Shown here piece by piece: positions 1-49,318 of a stretch of DNA of 64,000 nt. The notes under the pieces are model-generated. The model was not told where the DNA came from and did not search any database. It was given only the letters and a program-made list of their open reading frames with translations. Position numbers and translations under genes: made by a program. Numbering within the stretch: the first letter of the stretch is position 1; every line of letters begins with the position of its first letter. The DNA comes from Patescibacteria group bacterium (lineage in GTDB: Bacteria; Patescibacteriota; UBA1384; XYA2-FULL-43-10): the NCBI GenBank assembly GCA_041674405.1, contig JBAYVT010000001.1:103967-167966 (forward strand). The letters run 5' to 3'.

Positions 1-1342
1 TTCGGATTGGTTTCTTGCCTCTATATGGTGGGACCAGCAAAGTTGAGATTGTGAGAGTGACGATCATACCGATCCATGCAATATATAAAATTCTTCTATA
101 AATAAATGGAAAATAGAAGGCCATTACCGTTTCTTTGAAAGAACCGTTCAATACAAGCGGATACCAAGACGCCGTTGCCAAAATGATTGAGGCCGTTGAC
201 CACGATACATGCGACTCCCAGAGTATTAGAGCATTTGACCAGCGATCTATCCAATGGATTTTTTTGTCCTTGATAGTGTGTTCCATCACATATGGTATAT
301 CGGAAACCCCCCAAGACCATCTTCGTTTCTGGAGATACTGCTCTTTGATCGTTGATTTCATATCTCCGGCCAAGATTGCATCCTGATAAATCGGAGTGTA
401 CAGCGGGACAACATCATGGTCGCCATTGAAACGATAATAGCTTCTCCAAAACTGATGGCCGTCCTCAACAACAGATTGCTTTGACCAGAAATCAGTCATT
501 TCCAGCGCAGCCATACTTTGAGCTTGTGCAGAAAAATTGCGCAAGCGCGAAGGCCTGGTAGCCACGATAAGCTGCCAAAAAGATGAACCCATCGCAATCA
601 GCCTCATCGGCATCGGCACATCCCAAATATTGTTGAAAAACATCGGTAATGGCTGAAAACTTTTATGAATCGGATCAGGATCAGTAAGATACAAATAAGT
701 GAGGCAGGGCAAATAATTTTTGTCCATTCTGTGATCGGCATCCATATTGGTCACGATAACATTGTCCAAGGGAATATTCTTTTTCTTGAAATATTCAAGC
801 ATGATTTTGCCAGAATACGTGATATTTGGCCCTTTGCCAATAATCTCGTTTGGCATATCTTTCGGGTGCATTATAACCAAATAATCTGCAACTTTATCTT
901 TATATTTTTCAGTAAGGATTTTTCCGTATGGCTCTGCTTGCTCTTTGGCGCGTTCCTCAATTGCCAAAACGTAAACGACTTTGTCCATTGGATAGTTTGA
1001 TTGATAAACAGATTGGATGGAGTGTTCAAGTATGGCGATGTCTTCTTTGTATGTTGGCACGATCACAAGGTGCCATATATCCTTGTAACTCTTGTCTGGC
1101 GGAAGCTGCTTCAATTTGGCGAACCAATCAATCTTTGTGTCTTTTCTGTAGTTTTTATAACCCAAAATGAGCCTGTATGACATAAAGAATGTGCGCACAA
1201 GCCAGAACGTGACATAAAACAGAAGCACTATCGCCAAAAACCTTGGGGCATAATAAGCCAGAAACAATGGGGATATAATCACAACCCAGGCAATCGCGCC
1301 AGGTAAAATTTCAAAAAATCGTTTGTATTTCCAGTTTGACAT
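1..1342 (-). CDS. Family 2 glycosyltransferase (processive, cellulose-synthase-like), partial; the 5' (N-terminal) end and start codon lie within the window at 1342 and the 3' end runs off the window edge at position 1
   Basis: Manual translation of the minus strand from ATG (rc 1340-1342) has no stop through to position 1. It contains the DxD motif (NMDADH) and the QxxRW motif (QKRRW) typical of processive GT2 enzymes, plus N- and C-terminal TM segments. It is absent from the ORF track because it runs off the edge. Confidence 0.75.
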   Translation of the reverse strand, partial: MSNWKYKRFFEILPGAIAWVVIISPLFLAYYAPRFLAIVLLFYVTFWLVRTFFMSYRLILGYKNYRKDTKIDWFAKLKQLPPDKSYKDIWHLVIVPTYKEDIAILEHSIQSVYQSNYPMDKVVYVLAIEERAKEQAEPYGKILTEKYKDKVADYLVIMHPKDMPNEIIGKGPNITYSGKIMLEYFKKKNIPLDNVIVTNMDADHRMDKNYLPCLTYLYLTDPDPIHKSFQPLPMFFNNIWDVPMPMRLIAMGSSFWQLIVATRPSRLRNFSAQAQSMAALEMTDFWSKQSVVEDGHQFWRSYYRFNGDHDVVPLYTPIYQDAILAGDMKSTIKEQYLQKRRWSWGVSDIPYVMEHTIKDKKIHWIDRWSNALILWESHVSWSTASIILATASWYPLVLNGSFKETVMAFYFPFIYRRILYIAWIGMIVTLTISTLLVPPYRGKKPIR

Positions 1343-2835: not shown

Positions 2836-3171
2836 ATGGGAACGCCACAAAGCGTTCTCATTGTTTTATCGTCTATTCTGATAGTCGAGGCCGCGGTCCC
2901 GGAAAACTTTTGGTTCAATAATTCACTATGGCATTGCCCGATACAACGATTTATTATGCCTCTATTTTTCGGCAGCCATTGTCCTTCCTCAGGATTTTTT
3001 GTCGGCTGCCGCTGCCCAGGTTGTGGGATGACCCATGCGTTATCGGCCTTGATGCATGGTAATTTGCATGCTGCAATTGACTATAACATTCTTGTGGTTC
3101 CCTTGTCTTTGGTTGTGCTGTATTTGATAATTTCAAGCATAATCCACTTATATAAAATTACCCGACAATAA
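2836..3171 (+). CDS. DUF2752 family protein (CPxCGxTR motif)
   Basis: CPGCGMTHA motif with flanking TM helices. This family is often next to TM2/CD225 genes. The true start could instead be the upstream alternative at 2749. Confidence 0.6.
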   Translation: MGTPQSVLIVLSSILIVEAAVPENFWFNNSLWHCPIQRFIMPLFFGSHCPSSGFFVGCRCPGCGMTHALSALMHGNLHAAIDYNILVVPLSLVVLYLIISSIIHLYKITRQ

Positions 3172-3225
3172 TTTCGACTTCAATAATGATAACTTTTTTC
3201 AAATCAAAAACTTTCATTCCGACCA

Positions 3226-3274
3226 AACGTAACAATTCTTCCGCGGTCACGGAAGAATTGTTACGTTTTTTATT
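3226..3274 (+). terminator. Rho-independent terminator (18-bp stem plus T7)
   Basis: AACGTAACAATTCTTCCG-cggtca-CGGAAGAATTGTTACGTT followed by TTTTTTA. Confidence 0.8.
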
Positions 3275-3389
3275 GTCATTTGTATTAAAATAGTTTTTTT
3301 GAAAAATCAGTTATAATATTTATATAGTATTTTTCATAGAATATTCAGAACAATAATTTATAAAATAATTTTAATTCACTGGAGGCACA

Positions 3390-3713
3390 ATGAAGCGTGG
3401 AATTGAAAGAGGCGGTGTGTCCGCCGACGAGCTAAGCGAATACGAAGAAATGGGTGTTCCAGAACCAGACAATCCGGTTTCGCGACAATTAGCAAAAGGG
3501 GAACAGATAGAAGGCACACAAAACCCGGGAAGACCAATATCACACGAATTACAACAAAGAGCTGCCGAAGCTCAAGTTGAAACTGCCGAGCACACAGAAG
3601 AGATAACGAGAGAACAGGAGCGCGCTCGCGAAGAAGAACAAAGACGCATTGCGGAGGTTCGCAGCAGCATCGAGGCAACGCCCGAGAGTGACGGCCCCAT
3701 AGAAGAAAATTAA
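3390..3713 (+). CDS. Acidic, low-complexity hypothetical protein (E/Q/R-rich, likely disordered)
   Basis: GGAGG RBS. The body is ~50% GC, noticeably richer than the flanks. Possibly stress/LEA-like, unassigned. Confidence 0.5.
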   Translation: MKRGIERGGVSADELSEYEEMGVPEPDNPVSRQLAKGEQIEGTQNPGRPISHELQQRAAEAQVETAEHTEEITREQERAREEEQRRIAEVRSSIEATPESDGPIEEN

Positions 3714-4562: not shown

Positions 4563-5486
4563 TTATAATGTTGGAGTTGGTTGAAAACGATTTTTGAAAT
4601 TATCAATCAGTTTTTGGAAAAATCCGATTGGCGATTTGCAAGTCGAATTAAACATTTGGATATCTTCACTTGATAGCATTGGGTCAGACAAATTTTGAGC
4701 TCCCAAGATTGAATACATTATTGAAGTATCAATCGCATCATGCCCAAGTGAAAGAGCGTGCCCTAGTTCGTGCATCAGAACCAAGCGTAATTCCTCACTG
4801 TTGCCAAATGTGAAAATATCAATTTTAGGATCAGCTGGATAATATAGCCCCGATGTAATAATCTTATTTTGGTCTGTACTAATTTCATTGTTCAACTGGC
4901 CCAAATTGGAATTATGGTCGTTAATTTGGATATTTAGAAGGCTGATGTAATCATTAATTTGCGAACGCCTTTTATCGAGATTGGCTTTTTCTGATTGTAA
5001 TCGGGTATATACTTCCTGCGGTGCTCCGCCGTGTAAATTCCAGTATTGAACGGTTGAATTATAATCATTCAAATCAGATTCGTAACTCGTAATCATGGAT
5101 TCCAATTTTGATTTTGCTGAATCAATCGCATTACCAGAAGAATCAAGATTTGCAACCTCGGAATTTAATTTATCAACATTTGCTTGGCGCTCATCATAGA
5201 CCAGGTTAATTTTTAATTTAGCTGATGAATCGTATAAGAGAACCTGCTCGCCGGCTTCCGAATTCCAACGACTAGTTGCATCATCGGCAATTTTTGACAA
5301 GTCTGAATTTGAAATTTTAAAACGCGGATCAACATTGCCAATGGCATACTTTACAGGAAGTTTGCATGGATTTTTCAAAAAAACAGAATATAAATAATAT
5401 CCTGCCATTAAAATCAGAATCAAAAAAATTGCTGCTGGCCAAAAACTACTGCGTTTATTCGAAGTTAGTTGGATATTTTCTTCCAT
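4563..5486 (-). CDS. Membrane-anchored zinc metalloprotease (matrixin/M10-like HExxHxxGxxH)
   Basis: N-terminal TM helix, a long coiled-coil-like N/S/Q-rich region, then HELGHALSLGHD. Confidence 0.75.
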   Translation of the reverse strand: MEENIQLTSNKRSSFWPAAIFLILILMAGYYLYSVFLKNPCKLPVKYAIGNVDPRFKISNSDLSKIADDATSRWNSEAGEQVLLYDSSAKLKINLVYDERQANVDKLNSEVANLDSSGNAIDSAKSKLESMITSYESDLNDYNSTVQYWNLHGGAPQEVYTRLQSEKANLDKRRSQINDYISLLNIQINDHNSNLGQLNNEISTDQNKIITSGLYYPADPKIDIFTFGNSEELRLVLMHELGHALSLGHDAIDTSIMYSILGAQNLSDPMLSSEDIQMFNSTCKSPIGFFQKLIDNFKNRFQPTPTL

Positions 5487-5529
5487 ACCAAAATTATATC
5501 GCCTTTGGAATTAGCATAAAAGATATTGA

Positions 5530-5900
5530 ATAAATAATATTCGGGGAGGGGCTCGCGTGATGCTAACCCCTGGGTCTCCCTCCGGCCAACGCTACGTGGC
5601 AGATCCCCTCGGAGCAGACGGGTATCTCAACGATTGTTGGCTTCTCCGGGTCATCGGATGGATACCTTACGAGCAAGATGAGTTGGCCGTCAGTGGCGTA
5701 GCTGGTGCTGAGCACCGCTGTCACAAGACCGAATATATCTTCTCGCACGCTCGGGATCCACACTTCATCACCCGGAGAGAAATGCCTGACACCGCGTAGC
5801 CGGGATGGCACCAGATTTTTAGCCACGAGGGCATTTTTCTGCGCCACCCAGCCATTCTGGGCACCTAAAGATGCGAGCACCTGGTGCTCACCCCTTTCCG
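5530..5900. other. GC-rich (~58%) ~370-bp island with no credible ORF. Candidate structured RNA or foreign fragment.
   Basis: Three overlapping ORFs in different frames (5557..5799+, 5563..5880-, 5705..5956+). The minus one starts on GTG with no RBS. Palindromes GGTGCTGAGCACC and GAGCACCTGGTGCTC. Confidence 0.3.
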
Positions 5901-5971
5901 TATGTCTAGCGTTATGTTTACTCTATACGAAAATTGACTTTTGTCAACAAAATTAATAGTTCTAGAACTGT

Positions 5972-6688
5972 TTATATTGCAAATTTGATAGCAAGATAGA
6001 TCACGGCCATACCGAGAATTGTCATGATAGTAGTCAGGAAACGTGGGTGGCGATGATGGGATTCGGGCACAAGATCAGATGCACCGATGTAAAGGAAAAA
6101 ACCACCAAAAACAGCAAGAATCAAACCCAGAGTACTTTCAGATACACTAAAGAAAAATGTCGAGAGAACGCCAAAAACCGGTGCAAGAGCATCGAATAGG
6201 AGTAATGTGAATGCCGTTTTTGATTTGCCGCGGTTTTTCAGAATGAAGTTGACGGTATTTATGCCATCGGAAAAATCGTGGGCAAGTACAGCCACAGCAA
6301 CGACGATGCCGACAACCGGCGAAACCTTGAATGCCAGACCGATTCCAAGGCCATCGAGAAAACTATGAATTATGAGAGTAATTGCTCCAGCTAAGCCATT
6401 ATGATTTTCATCTTTATGCTCATGATCACCATGCGCATGAATGACTAAAATGCGATCAAGTATCATAAAAAGTATGAAACCAATGGCAATGAATGTGGTT
6501 GCCAGCGATGAGTCATATTTTTCTGAAACCAATTCGATTGATTCCGGCAAAAGATCGAAAAGCGCCACACCAACCACCGCACCAGCAGAGAACCCGAGAA
6601 TGATATGAAGTTTGTCCTTGAAACGAAGAGCAAATAGCCCGCCAAGCAATGTGGCAAAGAATGTCGCGATCGCGAATGCAATAATCAT
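5972..6688 (-). CDS. ZIP family metal (zinc) transporter (ZupT-like)
   Basis: HDFSDGINTV and GASDLVPE motifs, His-rich loop HAHGDHEHKDENH, multiple TM helices. Confidence 0.85.
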   Translation of the reverse strand: MIIAFAIATFFATLLGGLFALRFKDKLHIILGFSAGAVVGVALFDLLPESIELVSEKYDSSLATTFIAIGFILFMILDRILVIHAHGDHEHKDENHNGLAGAITLIIHSFLDGLGIGLAFKVSPVVGIVVAVAVLAHDFSDGINTVNFILKNRGKSKTAFTLLLFDALAPVFGVLSTFFFSVSESTLGLILAVFGGFFLYIGASDLVPESHHRHPRFLTTIMTILGMAVIYLAIKFAI

Positions 6689-10239: not shown

Positions 10240-10390
10240 TTCATTGGCGGGATCGACCGGACAATCTCACGCGGCCTTCGGCCTCTCCATAGGGCTTCCG
10301 CCCTCTGGCGCTTCGCTGTCACCTCGCACGGGAGACCAATTGTTCTCCCGACCCCACTCGTGTTCGAGTCCAGCCTTCTGCCTCCGCATA
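10240..10390 (-). ncRNA. Candidate ~150-nt GC-rich structured sRNA bracketed by two minus-strand terminators (identity unknown)
   Basis: ~60% GC in a ~35% background, with several hairpins (GGCCTTCGGCC, GGGAGAC..GTTCTCCC, ACTCG-tgtt-CGAGT). It lies between the terminators at 10388-10417 and 10129-10158. Overlapping ORFs on both strands look spurious. Confidence 0.3.
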
Positions 10391-10423: not shown

Positions 10424-10500
10424 TGGCGGGAACGACCGGACTCGAACCGGCGACCTCCACAGTGACAGTGTGGCGTTCTAACCAACTGAACTACGTCCCC
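10424..10500 (-). tRNA. tRNA-Asp (anticodon GTC)
   Basis: rc reads GGGGACG-TA-GTTC-AGTTGGTTA-GAAC-G-CCACA-CTGTCAC-TGTGG-AGGTC-GCCGG-TTCGAGT-CCGGT-CGTTCCC-G-CCA. Confidence 0.85.
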
Positions 10501-11889: not shown

Positions 11890-12041
11890 CAACCTGTCCC
11901 CGTACAAGACTATATTCCTACATTTTTTGCAAAAAACTTTATTGCATTTTTTCGGCAACTCATTTGTCGATTTTTGATTCTTTTGTTAGAATGGCTTTGC
12001 CTGAAAAAGGAGTACCTACCATTACAAGGAGAGTGAGCGCA

Positions 12042-13091
12042 ATGCGCGATTGGATCAAGGGAACGGTTCGCCCGATTTCCTTTCTGGCCGTTGTCCCGGT
12101 ATTACTTGGTGCAATTGTCAGCGGAACGCGCATGGACCATCACATTGCCTATGCGCTCCTCGGTGCGATTTTGGCTGTTGGCTTCGCCAACAGCTTTAAC
12201 ATTGTAATCGATCGCAAGATTGACAAACACAATCCCGACAAGAAAACCCTAGCCATTCGTCAACCGGTGAGGGCTTGGTACGGAGTGCTGTTTCTGCTGC
12301 CCCCGCTGGCTTTCTGTCTGCGCAACTGCCAGTTCAACCACATCCTCCTCTCGATTCTTTTCTACCTGTCCTGCCTGTACAGTTACTTGTACGGCAATGT
12401 GCCAGTGTTGAAGAGAATATCGGTCGCGGCAATTGTTGCGGCCACGGCCTTCCTTGATGTGGAAAGGTTCAACCTCGCCGTGTGGGTGCTGGCAGTAGTC
12501 ATCTTTGCCTTCATCTACTGGCGGGAGTCGCACAAAGATTCCGACGACAGGAAGGAGGATACCGAAATGAAGTTCGCCTGGATTCGGACCGGGATCACGC
12601 TCAACTGGTGGCTCGTAACGGCGCCGATCGCGGGTGCGGCAATTTACCTCTCGTGCCTCGTTGCCACCGGGAAGCCAATCAGCACAGCAGACATAGCGCT
12701 CGCGCTCGGCATTGCGATCTCGATCTGGTCGTACGTTCAGATCAGGTCGAAATACCATCTGTACAAAGTGCGATTGGCCCATGGGGCGCCTGCAGGCCGC
12801 CTGGGAATAGTTGTCTCGATGGTGGGCTTGATGCCCTCCTTTGTCAACCCGCTGTTCCTGGCCATTGTGGTGGTAAACTGCGCCTCAATCATCCACCGCA
12901 GCTTCAGGGGCCAGATCCCTTTCCACACTGGCTCGATCGCCCATGATGCGTACCTCTGGGCGAGCCTACCGCTCATGGCCATGGCCAAAGTCGGCTATCA
13001 CCCACTACTTCTCGCCGCATCAATCCTGCTAGCCAGTGTCACTTGCGCCAACATGCACCGGCTGAAGTGTGCAACAACCCCTGCGATGTAG
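12042..13091 (+). CDS. UbiA-family membrane prenyltransferase-like protein (GC-rich gene, ~58% GC)
   Basis: NSFNIVIDRKIDKHNPDKKTLAIRQP resembles the UbiA N..D...D motif (DPPR-synthase-like), with 8-9 TM helices. AAGGAGAG RBS precedes ATG 12042; the track's TTG start at 11964 is in frame upstream. Confidence 0.55.
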   Translation: MRDWIKGTVRPISFLAVVPVLLGAIVSGTRMDHHIAYALLGAILAVGFANSFNIVIDRKIDKHNPDKKTLAIRQPVRAWYGVLFLLPPLAFCLRNCQFNHILLSILFYLSCLYSYLYGNVPVLKRISVAAIVAATAFLDVERFNLAVWVLAVVIFAFIYWRESHKDSDDRKEDTEMKFAWIRTGITLNWWLVTAPIAGAAIYLSCLVATGKPISTADIALALGIAISIWSYVQIRSKYHLYKVRLAHGAPAGRLGIVVSMVGLMPSFVNPLFLAIVVVNCASIIHRSFRGQIPFHTGSIAHDAYLWASLPLMAMAKVGYHPLLLAASILLASVTCANMHRLKCATTPAM

Positions 13092-48860: not shown

Positions 48861-48948
48861 CGCTCAGATATATTCAATGAGCTATTGACATAACCAATTA
48901 TTTATGTTACCCTAAGATAAAGAAAATCGACTGCTAGGGGGTCTTACC

Positions 48949-49197
48949 ATGTCCAAAGCTAGTCGTATCGTTTGCGGGATCATCGCATGTCTGCTCCTCT
49001 ACCCGACTTATCGGGTCGGAGCGGTTGCCCTGGATTCAATGTACCGTTACTCGCTACTGAGCGAGCTCGACCTGATGAAGATGCCGCAGGTCGACAGATT
49101 CATCCTGGAGATGCAGTACGGGTGGCCTTTCCTCGTGGCCCTGGCCCTTTTCGTAGGAGTCCTGACCTTGGCGTACAAGGCTCTCTCACGTTATTAG
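48949..49197 (+). CDS. Small GC-rich membrane protein (82 aa, 2 TM), hypothetical
   Basis: AGGGGG RBS, TTGACA-type -35 upstream, own terminator. ~55% GC. Confidence 0.55.
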   Translation: MSKASRIVCGIIACLLLYPTYRVGAVALDSMYRYSLLSELDLMKMPQVDRFILEMQYGWPFLVALALFVGVLTLAYKALSRY

Positions 49198-49234
49198 GGG
49201 TTTGAGTCAGATGAATTGGCCACAAGAGCTCGGG

Positions 49235-49266
49235 CGCCCCACTAGTTGGGGCGTTCTTGCTTTATT
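49235..49266 (+). terminator. Rho-independent terminator
   Basis: CGCCCCA-ctagt-TGGGGCG followed by TTCTTGCTTTATT. Confidence 0.7.
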
Positions 49267-49318
49267 ATAATCATTTGGGTCCATTGTGATATTATTATTG
49301 AAGAGTTAATAGGAAGAT

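Follow-up and report, generated by a model that had tools for sequence, protein, structure and literature searches.

Large GC-rich non-coding RNAs, such as OLE, GOLLD, ROOL, HEARO (omega RNA) and raiA, together with RNase P RNA and tmRNA, stand out as GC islands in AT-rich genomes and fold more stably than shuffled sequence. Genomic islets are acquired genes in tRNA-linked variable regions. The serralysin inhibitors of the Inh/AprI family are small β-barrel proteins encoded beside M10-family metalloprotease genes. A locus in the genome of an uncultured Patescibacteria (CPR) bacterium resembles each of these in part. It forms a GC island, about 350 nt long, within a genome that is otherwise AT-rich, its composition is foreign-like, and it lies beside an M10 protease gene with a reading frame of about 105 codons whose product is predicted to be β-rich. 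We analysed 64,000 nucleotides of DNA around this island (hereafter the window). The reading we favour, with somewhat better than even confidence, is that the island is a lineage-specific small protein gene on the minus strand, ORF105, of foreign-like composition. Its observed base comprises the composition, an open frame, orthology of the flanking DNA, a protein similarity confined to one frame and a coding counterpart in a related genome; what we infer is that the promoter is used, that the frame is translated from its GTG, how the product folds and that the DNA is of foreign origin.

Composition and setting of the island

The GC content of positions 5540–5900 is 58.7%, and that of 5530–5900, for which an earlier note on this DNA had given about 58%, is 57.1%, compared with 39.2% for the window. 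Among 370-nt windows of the 64 kb, the island is surpassed in GC only by a UbiA-prenyltransferase-like gene (12.0–13.2 kb), and its deviation is clearly more than chance. It lies, as had been described, between a metalloprotease gene and a ZIP transporter gene:

4563–5486, minus strand: Peptidase_M10 (matrixin) metalloprotease gene, one flank of the island
5540..5900, no strand: GC-rich island, delimited by composition
5972–6688, minus strand: ZIP transporter gene, the other flank of the island

The protease is predicted to be membrane-anchored, with its protease domain extracytoplasmic. Three contigs from other assemblies (L001, L084 and L085) contain the island unaltered, and the island is therefore not an assembly artefact. 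Across the 1,446-bp JGI contig (L001) the window is 99.86% identical, with only 2 differences, at 6377 and 6383, both in the ZIP gene and 0 in the island.

The two palindromic hairpins noticed earlier are both exact:

5704–5716, no strand: palindrome GGTGCTGAGCACC, encoding A-V-L-S-T within ORF105
5875–5889, no strand: palindrome GAGCACCTGGTGCTC, within an imperfect inverted repeat (5867..5897)

Neither palindrome has a further exact copy in the 64 kb. The half-sites GGTGCT/AGCACC are common to both, in both arrangements, and 4 of the 24 GGTGCT hexamers of the window lie inside the island. The island also holds two copies of a 14-nt sequence in direct orientation, AGGGGTKAGCAYCA as read on the minus strand (5558–5571 and 5882–5895, 12/14 identical, 86%), one at the stop codon and one in the SD region of ORF105; they are in frame at a spacing of exactly 108 codons, and either copy makes up the 5′ arm of a hairpin. 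A second direct repeat, AT-rich and 19 nt long (5477–5495 and 5917–5935, 79% identical), lies on either side of the island. We rejected a mobile element as an explanation, since by a rough estimate the direct repeats and a 10-nt terminal inverted repeat are within chance expectation.

Reading frames and a counterpart in a related genome

All of the overlapping frames reported in the earlier note were recovered, the longest being the minus-strand frame with a GTG start, together with a fourth on the minus strand:

5557–5799, plus strand: ORF of 80 aa
5563–5880, minus strand: ORF105, 105 codons, GTG start at 5880–5878, TAG stop at 5565–5563, frame open from about 5925
5705–5956, plus strand: third ORF, 83 aa
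5721–5864, minus strand: fourth ORF, 47 aa

The low complexity that had been ascribed to the shorter frames is not evident from their translations. Around ORF105 the following candidate signals can be read:

5920..5947, minus strand: sigma-70-like promoter match TTGACA-16-TAGAGT (10/12, a consensus match only), just upstream of the island and on the strand of the gene
5891..5897, minus strand: SD-like AAAGGGG, 10 nt 5′ of the GTG, read from the sequence
5867..5897, no strand: imperfect 15+15-nt inverted repeat; in minus-strand RNA the start-codon region would be paired through it with the SD-like motif (probability of the core helix 0.97)
5543..5580, minus strand: GC-rich, terminator-like hairpin (−19.8 kcal/mol, z −3.0) that takes in the TAG stop and continues past it, with an A/U-rich tail after it
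5493..5498, minus strand: perfect TATAAT box, 6 nt upstream of the ATG of the protease gene (5486)

ORF105 would thus form its own short transcription unit between the ZIP and M10 protease genes, on the same strand as both. Read along the minus strand, the unit would open with the sigma-70-like promoter (5947–5920) and a leader of about 30 nt carrying the SD-like AAAGGGG, continue with the GTG start, 105 codons and a TAG stop inside the GC-rich hairpin, and be bounded downstream by the protease's own TATAAT promoter. The hairpin gave no match in a strict terminator scan. The frame had earlier been faulted for having no ribosome-binding site, a statement that the SD-like motif does not bear out; in this window the presence of an SD is in any case uninformative, because about two thirds of the genes sampled lack one. 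Native genes of the window have ATG starts and AT-rich, unstructured upstream regions, and ORF105 has a GTG and an SD-like motif inside a strong hairpin.

The coding evidence from the sequence of ORF105 itself is weak to marginal. GC at codon positions 1, 2 and 3 is 0.62, 0.47 and 0.63, lowest at position 2, and G at position 1 is 0.39. The period-3 power of the island has P = 0.04, far weaker than that of small genes in the same place in two related loci, L082 and L093 (P < 0.0005). Although 113 codons are open, 18% of dinucleotide shuffles of the island yield a frame as long (P = 0.18), and the length of ORF105 by itself is not beyond chance. An AlphaFold2 model made without an alignment (pLDDT 44) suggests, at low confidence, an N-terminal helix followed by five β-strands. 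By inspection, the N terminus, MLASLGAQNGWVAQKNALVAKN, has no hydrophobic signal-like stretch, and the product would appear to be made without a signal peptide.

Gene callers differ at this locus. JGI predicts ORF105 as a hypothetical protein (P0001), and ENA/Logan predicts a 79-aa ORF on the plus strand (5557/5560–5799). NCBI records neither protein, though it does record the neighbouring protease, and apparently called nothing at the island. That the plus-strand ORF of 79/80 aa is the true gene is very improbable. It was called in two assemblies, and its low-GC middle codon position, as in ORF105, is like that of an antisense shadow frame; however, it spans only two thirds of the island, runs opposite to both neighbours, forms a singleton cluster and has no Pfam or PHROG match, and compared with the small gene of L082 the plus frames reach only P = 0.18–0.26.

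L082 is the closest protease relative with usable context (ENA ERZ27297473 k141_1246765, a related Patescibacteria contig), its protease being 69% identical to that of the window. Directly upstream of the orthologous protease gene, in the slot and on the strand that ORF105 occupies in the window, it carries a gene for a 113-aa hypothetical protein (P0124). With a period-3 signal of P < 0.0005 and GC of 0.46/0.33/0.60 at codon positions 1/2/3, this gene is clearly coding. The part of ORF105 that matches it is:

5761..5820, minus strand: codons for KNLVPSRLRGVRHFSPGDEV, the segment matching the L082 gene, 10/20 identical

BLASTP aligns KNLVPSRLRGVRHFSPGDEV with KNLILLNERNVKHFKRGDKV of the L082 protein over these 20 residues at a pairwise E of 1e-4. 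The Smith–Waterman score is 50, with a permutation P of 3e-4 in the ORF105 frame and of 0.18–0.75 in the other five. Compared with all six frames of the 64 kb, the L082 protein has its best match in the island; conversely, once copies of the genome that the window comes from are set aside, ORF105 has its best match in the L082 gene. Synonymous codons differ between the two genomes at several of the identical residues. The proteins have the motif KNL....R.V.HF..GD.V in common, a global alignment adds D-G and S..I.H matches near the C terminus, and the ORF105 frame is intact throughout the aligned length and ends at a comparable point.

The two genes are alike in their similar length, their elevated GC3 and the hairpin after the stop. 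They differ in that global identity is only about 26%, so that the similarity is carried mainly by the 20 residues; ORF105 has a 16-residue insertion and is without the first ~40 residues of the L082 ORF, the GC of the island is much higher (59% versus 46%) and its coding periodicity is weaker. The DNA 3′ of both small ORFs also aligns, with a hairpin at the stop, then CCTCYCC..TAT.TATT and then TATAATTTTRGTATGGA. The L082 hairpin stands in the same aligned place as the 5543..5580 hairpin, with another sequence. Judged from this alignment, the intergenic DNA downstream of both small ORFs is orthologous.

The earlier note had held that the island contains no credible ORF, a statement that this frame-specific homologue in the corresponding position contradicts, if weakly. 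It had also named a conserved protein in one frame as the finding that would refute it; L082 supplies a weak case of this, with a 20-residue core and no other homologue. Searches with the L082 protein found no other relative, and it is itself an orphan (AlphaFold2 pLDDT 49). ORF105 and the L082 gene would then represent a fast-evolving family of two detectable members, each directly upstream of an orthologous M10 protease gene.

Wider searches returned no further member. None of three island ORFs has a match in Pfam (E ≤ 10) or PHROGs, and a sequence search of the PDB with ORF105 gave nothing meaningful. A word-indexed search of 5.8 billion proteins finds ORF105 only. A full HMMER search of 1.84 billion protein representatives returns ORF105 and two repeat proteins, with no real homologue; we set the two aside as artefacts, in which a chance short motif is multiplied by at least 9 repeats. 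Plasmids and phages, searched as DNA and by tblastn, hold no relative of the island, and a Stutzerimonas hypothetical protein was discarded at an E of only about 0.4. Two scans of metagenome contigs (one by protein, one by two-sequence alignment) and one of viral contigs found no relative either. There is no DNA-level relative of the island among 98 fetched Patescibacteria loci (L001–L098), and neither an island homologue nor synteny among 80 loci of ZIP-gene relatives (identity ≤67%).

We also considered the serralysin inhibitor family Inh/AprI (PF02974) for ORF105 and rejected it, there being no Pfam match at E ≤ 10 and no signal-like N terminus. By analogy, a predicted β-rich product of about 105 aa encoded beside an M10 protease gene may serve as a lead. 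ORF105 differs from these inhibitors in having five predicted strands (AlphaFold2, low confidence) rather than eight and, by inspection, in having no signal peptide.

Several of these results would also suit a decaying relic, in which the island derives from an L082-type small gene or from a transferred gene that is no longer expressed as protein, as foreign DNA drifting in an intergenic slot. We regard this as unlikely. A relic could explain why the periodicity is weak while that of the L082 and L093 genes is strong, why the GTG start is buried in a hairpin, why NCBI apparently leaves the region empty while other callers choose differing strands, and why no homologues were found and the ORF length is not significant. 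Yet the frame has stayed intact along the full alignment with L082 to a comparable end, and a promoter-like site, an SD-like motif and a post-stop hairpin are all present; one would expect DNA under no selection, in a genome of 39% GC, to drift to lower GC and pick up stop codons.

RNA fold and the protease promoter

The minus-strand fold of the island has an energy of −156 kcal/mol and a z of −3.7 (plus strand, −2.4). Control window-strands of the same length (n = 84) have a mean z of −0.48, an s.d. of 1.22 and a minimum of −3.59, which places the minus-strand island beyond all of them. Several minus-strand helices have pairing probabilities >0.95, and the strongest predicted helix, of 9 bp, joins 5770–5778 with 5643–5651. 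By comparison, the region of tRNA-Asp and a conserved element beside it has a z of −8.6, a small GC-rich gene has −2.9 on both strands and the coding L082 gene has −2.5. These values weaken the fold z-score as evidence for an RNA.

The proposal of the earlier note that the island is a large structured RNA is not supported. An Rfam 15 scan of 5300–6100 with permissive filters gave 0 matches at E ≤ 10, and at gathering thresholds the whole window yields 3 tRNAs and nothing else. ARAGORN finds no tmRNA. These scans bear out the note's own comparison by eye, which had found no match to RNase P, tmRNA, SRP, cobalamin or group II signatures. Conservation of sequence or structure with compensatory changes was not found: the island has no DNA relative in the 98 loci, in plasmids or in phages, and its similarity to L082 is at the level of protein. 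The slot in L082 holds a coding gene, and one arm of the strongest helix falls in the 16-codon segment that L082 lacks. The island thus differs from OLE and the other large RNAs in matching no covariance model at E ≤ 10, in showing no conservation of DNA or structure in relatives, and in its 3-base periodicity and frame-specific protein match.

A structured, lineage-specific non-coding RNA, about 340 nt long and transcribed from the minus strand, is in our view distinctly unlikely, as is its variant, an mRNA with functional structure. Such an RNA would fit the high GC, which in this AT-rich genome also marks the tRNAs and the conserved element at 10.2 kb, as well as the extreme minus-strand z, the confident helices, the two unique palindromes with common half-sites and the promoter-like site upstream with a hairpin at the 3′ end. 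Set against this are the empty Rfam scan, the databases searched without a DNA relative, the protein-level similarity to the L082 slot in one frame only, the helix arm absent from L082, the z of −2.5 for a coding gene compared with −8.6 for a true RNA, and the period-3 signal. A further reading, which we give only a slim chance, is a lineage-restricted RNA of about 340 nt, or a message that is also a structured regulator, in which the hairpin sequestering the SD and start codon and the paired palindromes are functional. Were it true, the hairpin and palindromes could act, for example, as a switch controlling expression beside the M10 protease gene.

The protease itself apparently has its own promoter and a leaderless mRNA, as judged from the TATAAT box and from the block TATAATTTTRGTATGGA, which is kept together with the −10 box in L082 (~5985–6003; window 5484–5498). 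With a separate promoter for the protease and a hairpin after ORF105, the island would form a separate unit that ends in the hairpin. Several other genes of the window also have TATAAT-like boxes near the ATG. The same region bears on whether the island belongs to one of the flanking mRNAs, either as a 3′ UTR of the ZIP gene or, in the M10 protease mRNA, as a cis-regulatory element or long 5′ leader. Its shared strand, its place between the two genes and its structure would speak for this. We find it scarcely probable. The TATAAT 6 nt before the ATG, conserved in L082, implies that the protease mRNA begins downstream of the island and is leaderless, a hairpin stands between the island and the protease promoter, no riboswitch or leader family matches, and nothing of the kind precedes the protease gene in L086 and L094.

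The slot upstream of the protease

The GC3 of ORF105 is 0.63, compared with 0.383 ± 0.071 for 58 ORFs of the window, 3.5 s.d. above the mean and exceeded only by that of the UbiA-like gene. ORF105 thus appears compositionally foreign, either recently acquired or not yet adapted. The earlier suggestion of a foreign fragment has support from composition only, and no donor or homologue was found. No donor lineage emerged from plasmids, phages, viral contigs, metagenome contigs or the 1.84 billion protein representatives, and no integrase or other mobility gene was seen among the neighbours. The UbiA-prenyltransferase-like gene (11964–13091, plus strand; GC3 0.68) shows the strongest deviation in composition within the window and was probably acquired horizontally.

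In related genomes the place of ORF105 is filled in different ways. In L093, whose protease is 66% identical to that of the window, the slot is occupied by an unrelated 103-aa gene (186–497, plus strand) with 55% GC in a locus of 44%, an AGGAGG motif, a strong terminator and a period-3 P < 0.0005. L086 and L094 have a NUDIX gene beside the protease and no small ORF upstream; in more distant protease relatives the slot holds other small ORFs, a tRNA or a conserved element linked to a tRNA. Loci L086–L092 and L094–L098 carry other small ORFs or none, and the 70-aa, 98-aa, 103-aa and 169-aa neighbours in protease relatives have no significant similarity to ORF105. Because the small genes, tRNA or element found there differ among relatives or are missing, the position upstream of the M10 protease is a variable slot, often beside a tRNA gene, with small GC-elevated orphan genes. 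In L089, a 215-aa orphan gene of 60–65% GC (2851–3498, minus strand) lies beside the orthologous protease in a locus of 48%.

This arrangement recalls genomic islets: ORF105 has a foreign-like composition, and in relatives the slot adjoins a tRNA gene and an element duplicating the tRNA 3′ end, with small GC-elevated orphans that differ by lineage. It differs from them in that neither a mobility gene nor a donor was found and that, in the window, tRNA-Asp and the element lie about 4.4 kb from the island.

A second GC-rich island of the window (48921–49280) contains an 82-aa ORF (48949–49197, plus strand) that looks hydrophobic by inspection and has no Pfam match. It has a TTGACA promoter-like site, its ATG is preceded at 7 nt by an AGGGGG ribosome-binding site, and its terminator hairpin, GGGCGCCCCACTAGTTGGGGCGTTCTTGCTTT, is clear. 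Small GC-rich genes with clear signals thus exist in this genome.

The tRNA-linked element is a GC-rich conserved sequence of 115–146 nt that directly follows a gene for tRNA-Asp, tRNA-Lys or tRNA-Glu; in the cases checked for strand, the two lie on the same one. Its copies are:

10244–10389, minus strand: element in the window, following tRNA-Asp (10424–10500)
L082 4579–4692; L087 3706–3836; L088 513–643; L089 3691–3820; L016 1273–1395, strand not given: complete copies
L097 ~1060–1270, strand not given: longer variant
L093 1–57, strand not given: partial copy

Complete copies thus occur in six loci from at least five genomes. The core, GGGAYUCGAAC..GGGGUCGGGAGAAC..UCUCCCG, is 93–98% identical between the window and L087–L089, whose proteases are only 56–59% identical. 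The last ~18 nt of the element copy the 3′ end of the adjacent tRNA (T-stem strand, acceptor strand and mostly the CCA), and its 5′ end is complementary to this copy. A terminator-like hairpin follows the element in L082 and L016. Of the 33 pairs that RNAalifold predicts, 5 show compensatory changes, and Rfam gives no match. The element may be an att-site-bearing remnant marking a variable region, or a tRNA-mimicking small RNA. It looks more intriguing than the island and may be of wider interest for how variable regions form in reduced genomes.

By itself, ORF105 matters little, as one more uncharacterised orphan small gene in a Patescibacteria genome. The locus carries a lesson for annotation, in that three pipelines treat it in three ways and that a GC island without database homologues can be coding, something that only synteny with a close relative brought out. 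A role of ORF105 linked to the M10 protease is conceivable; should the gene prove real, its recurrence beside an M10 metalloprotease gene would hint at a protease-associated small protein.
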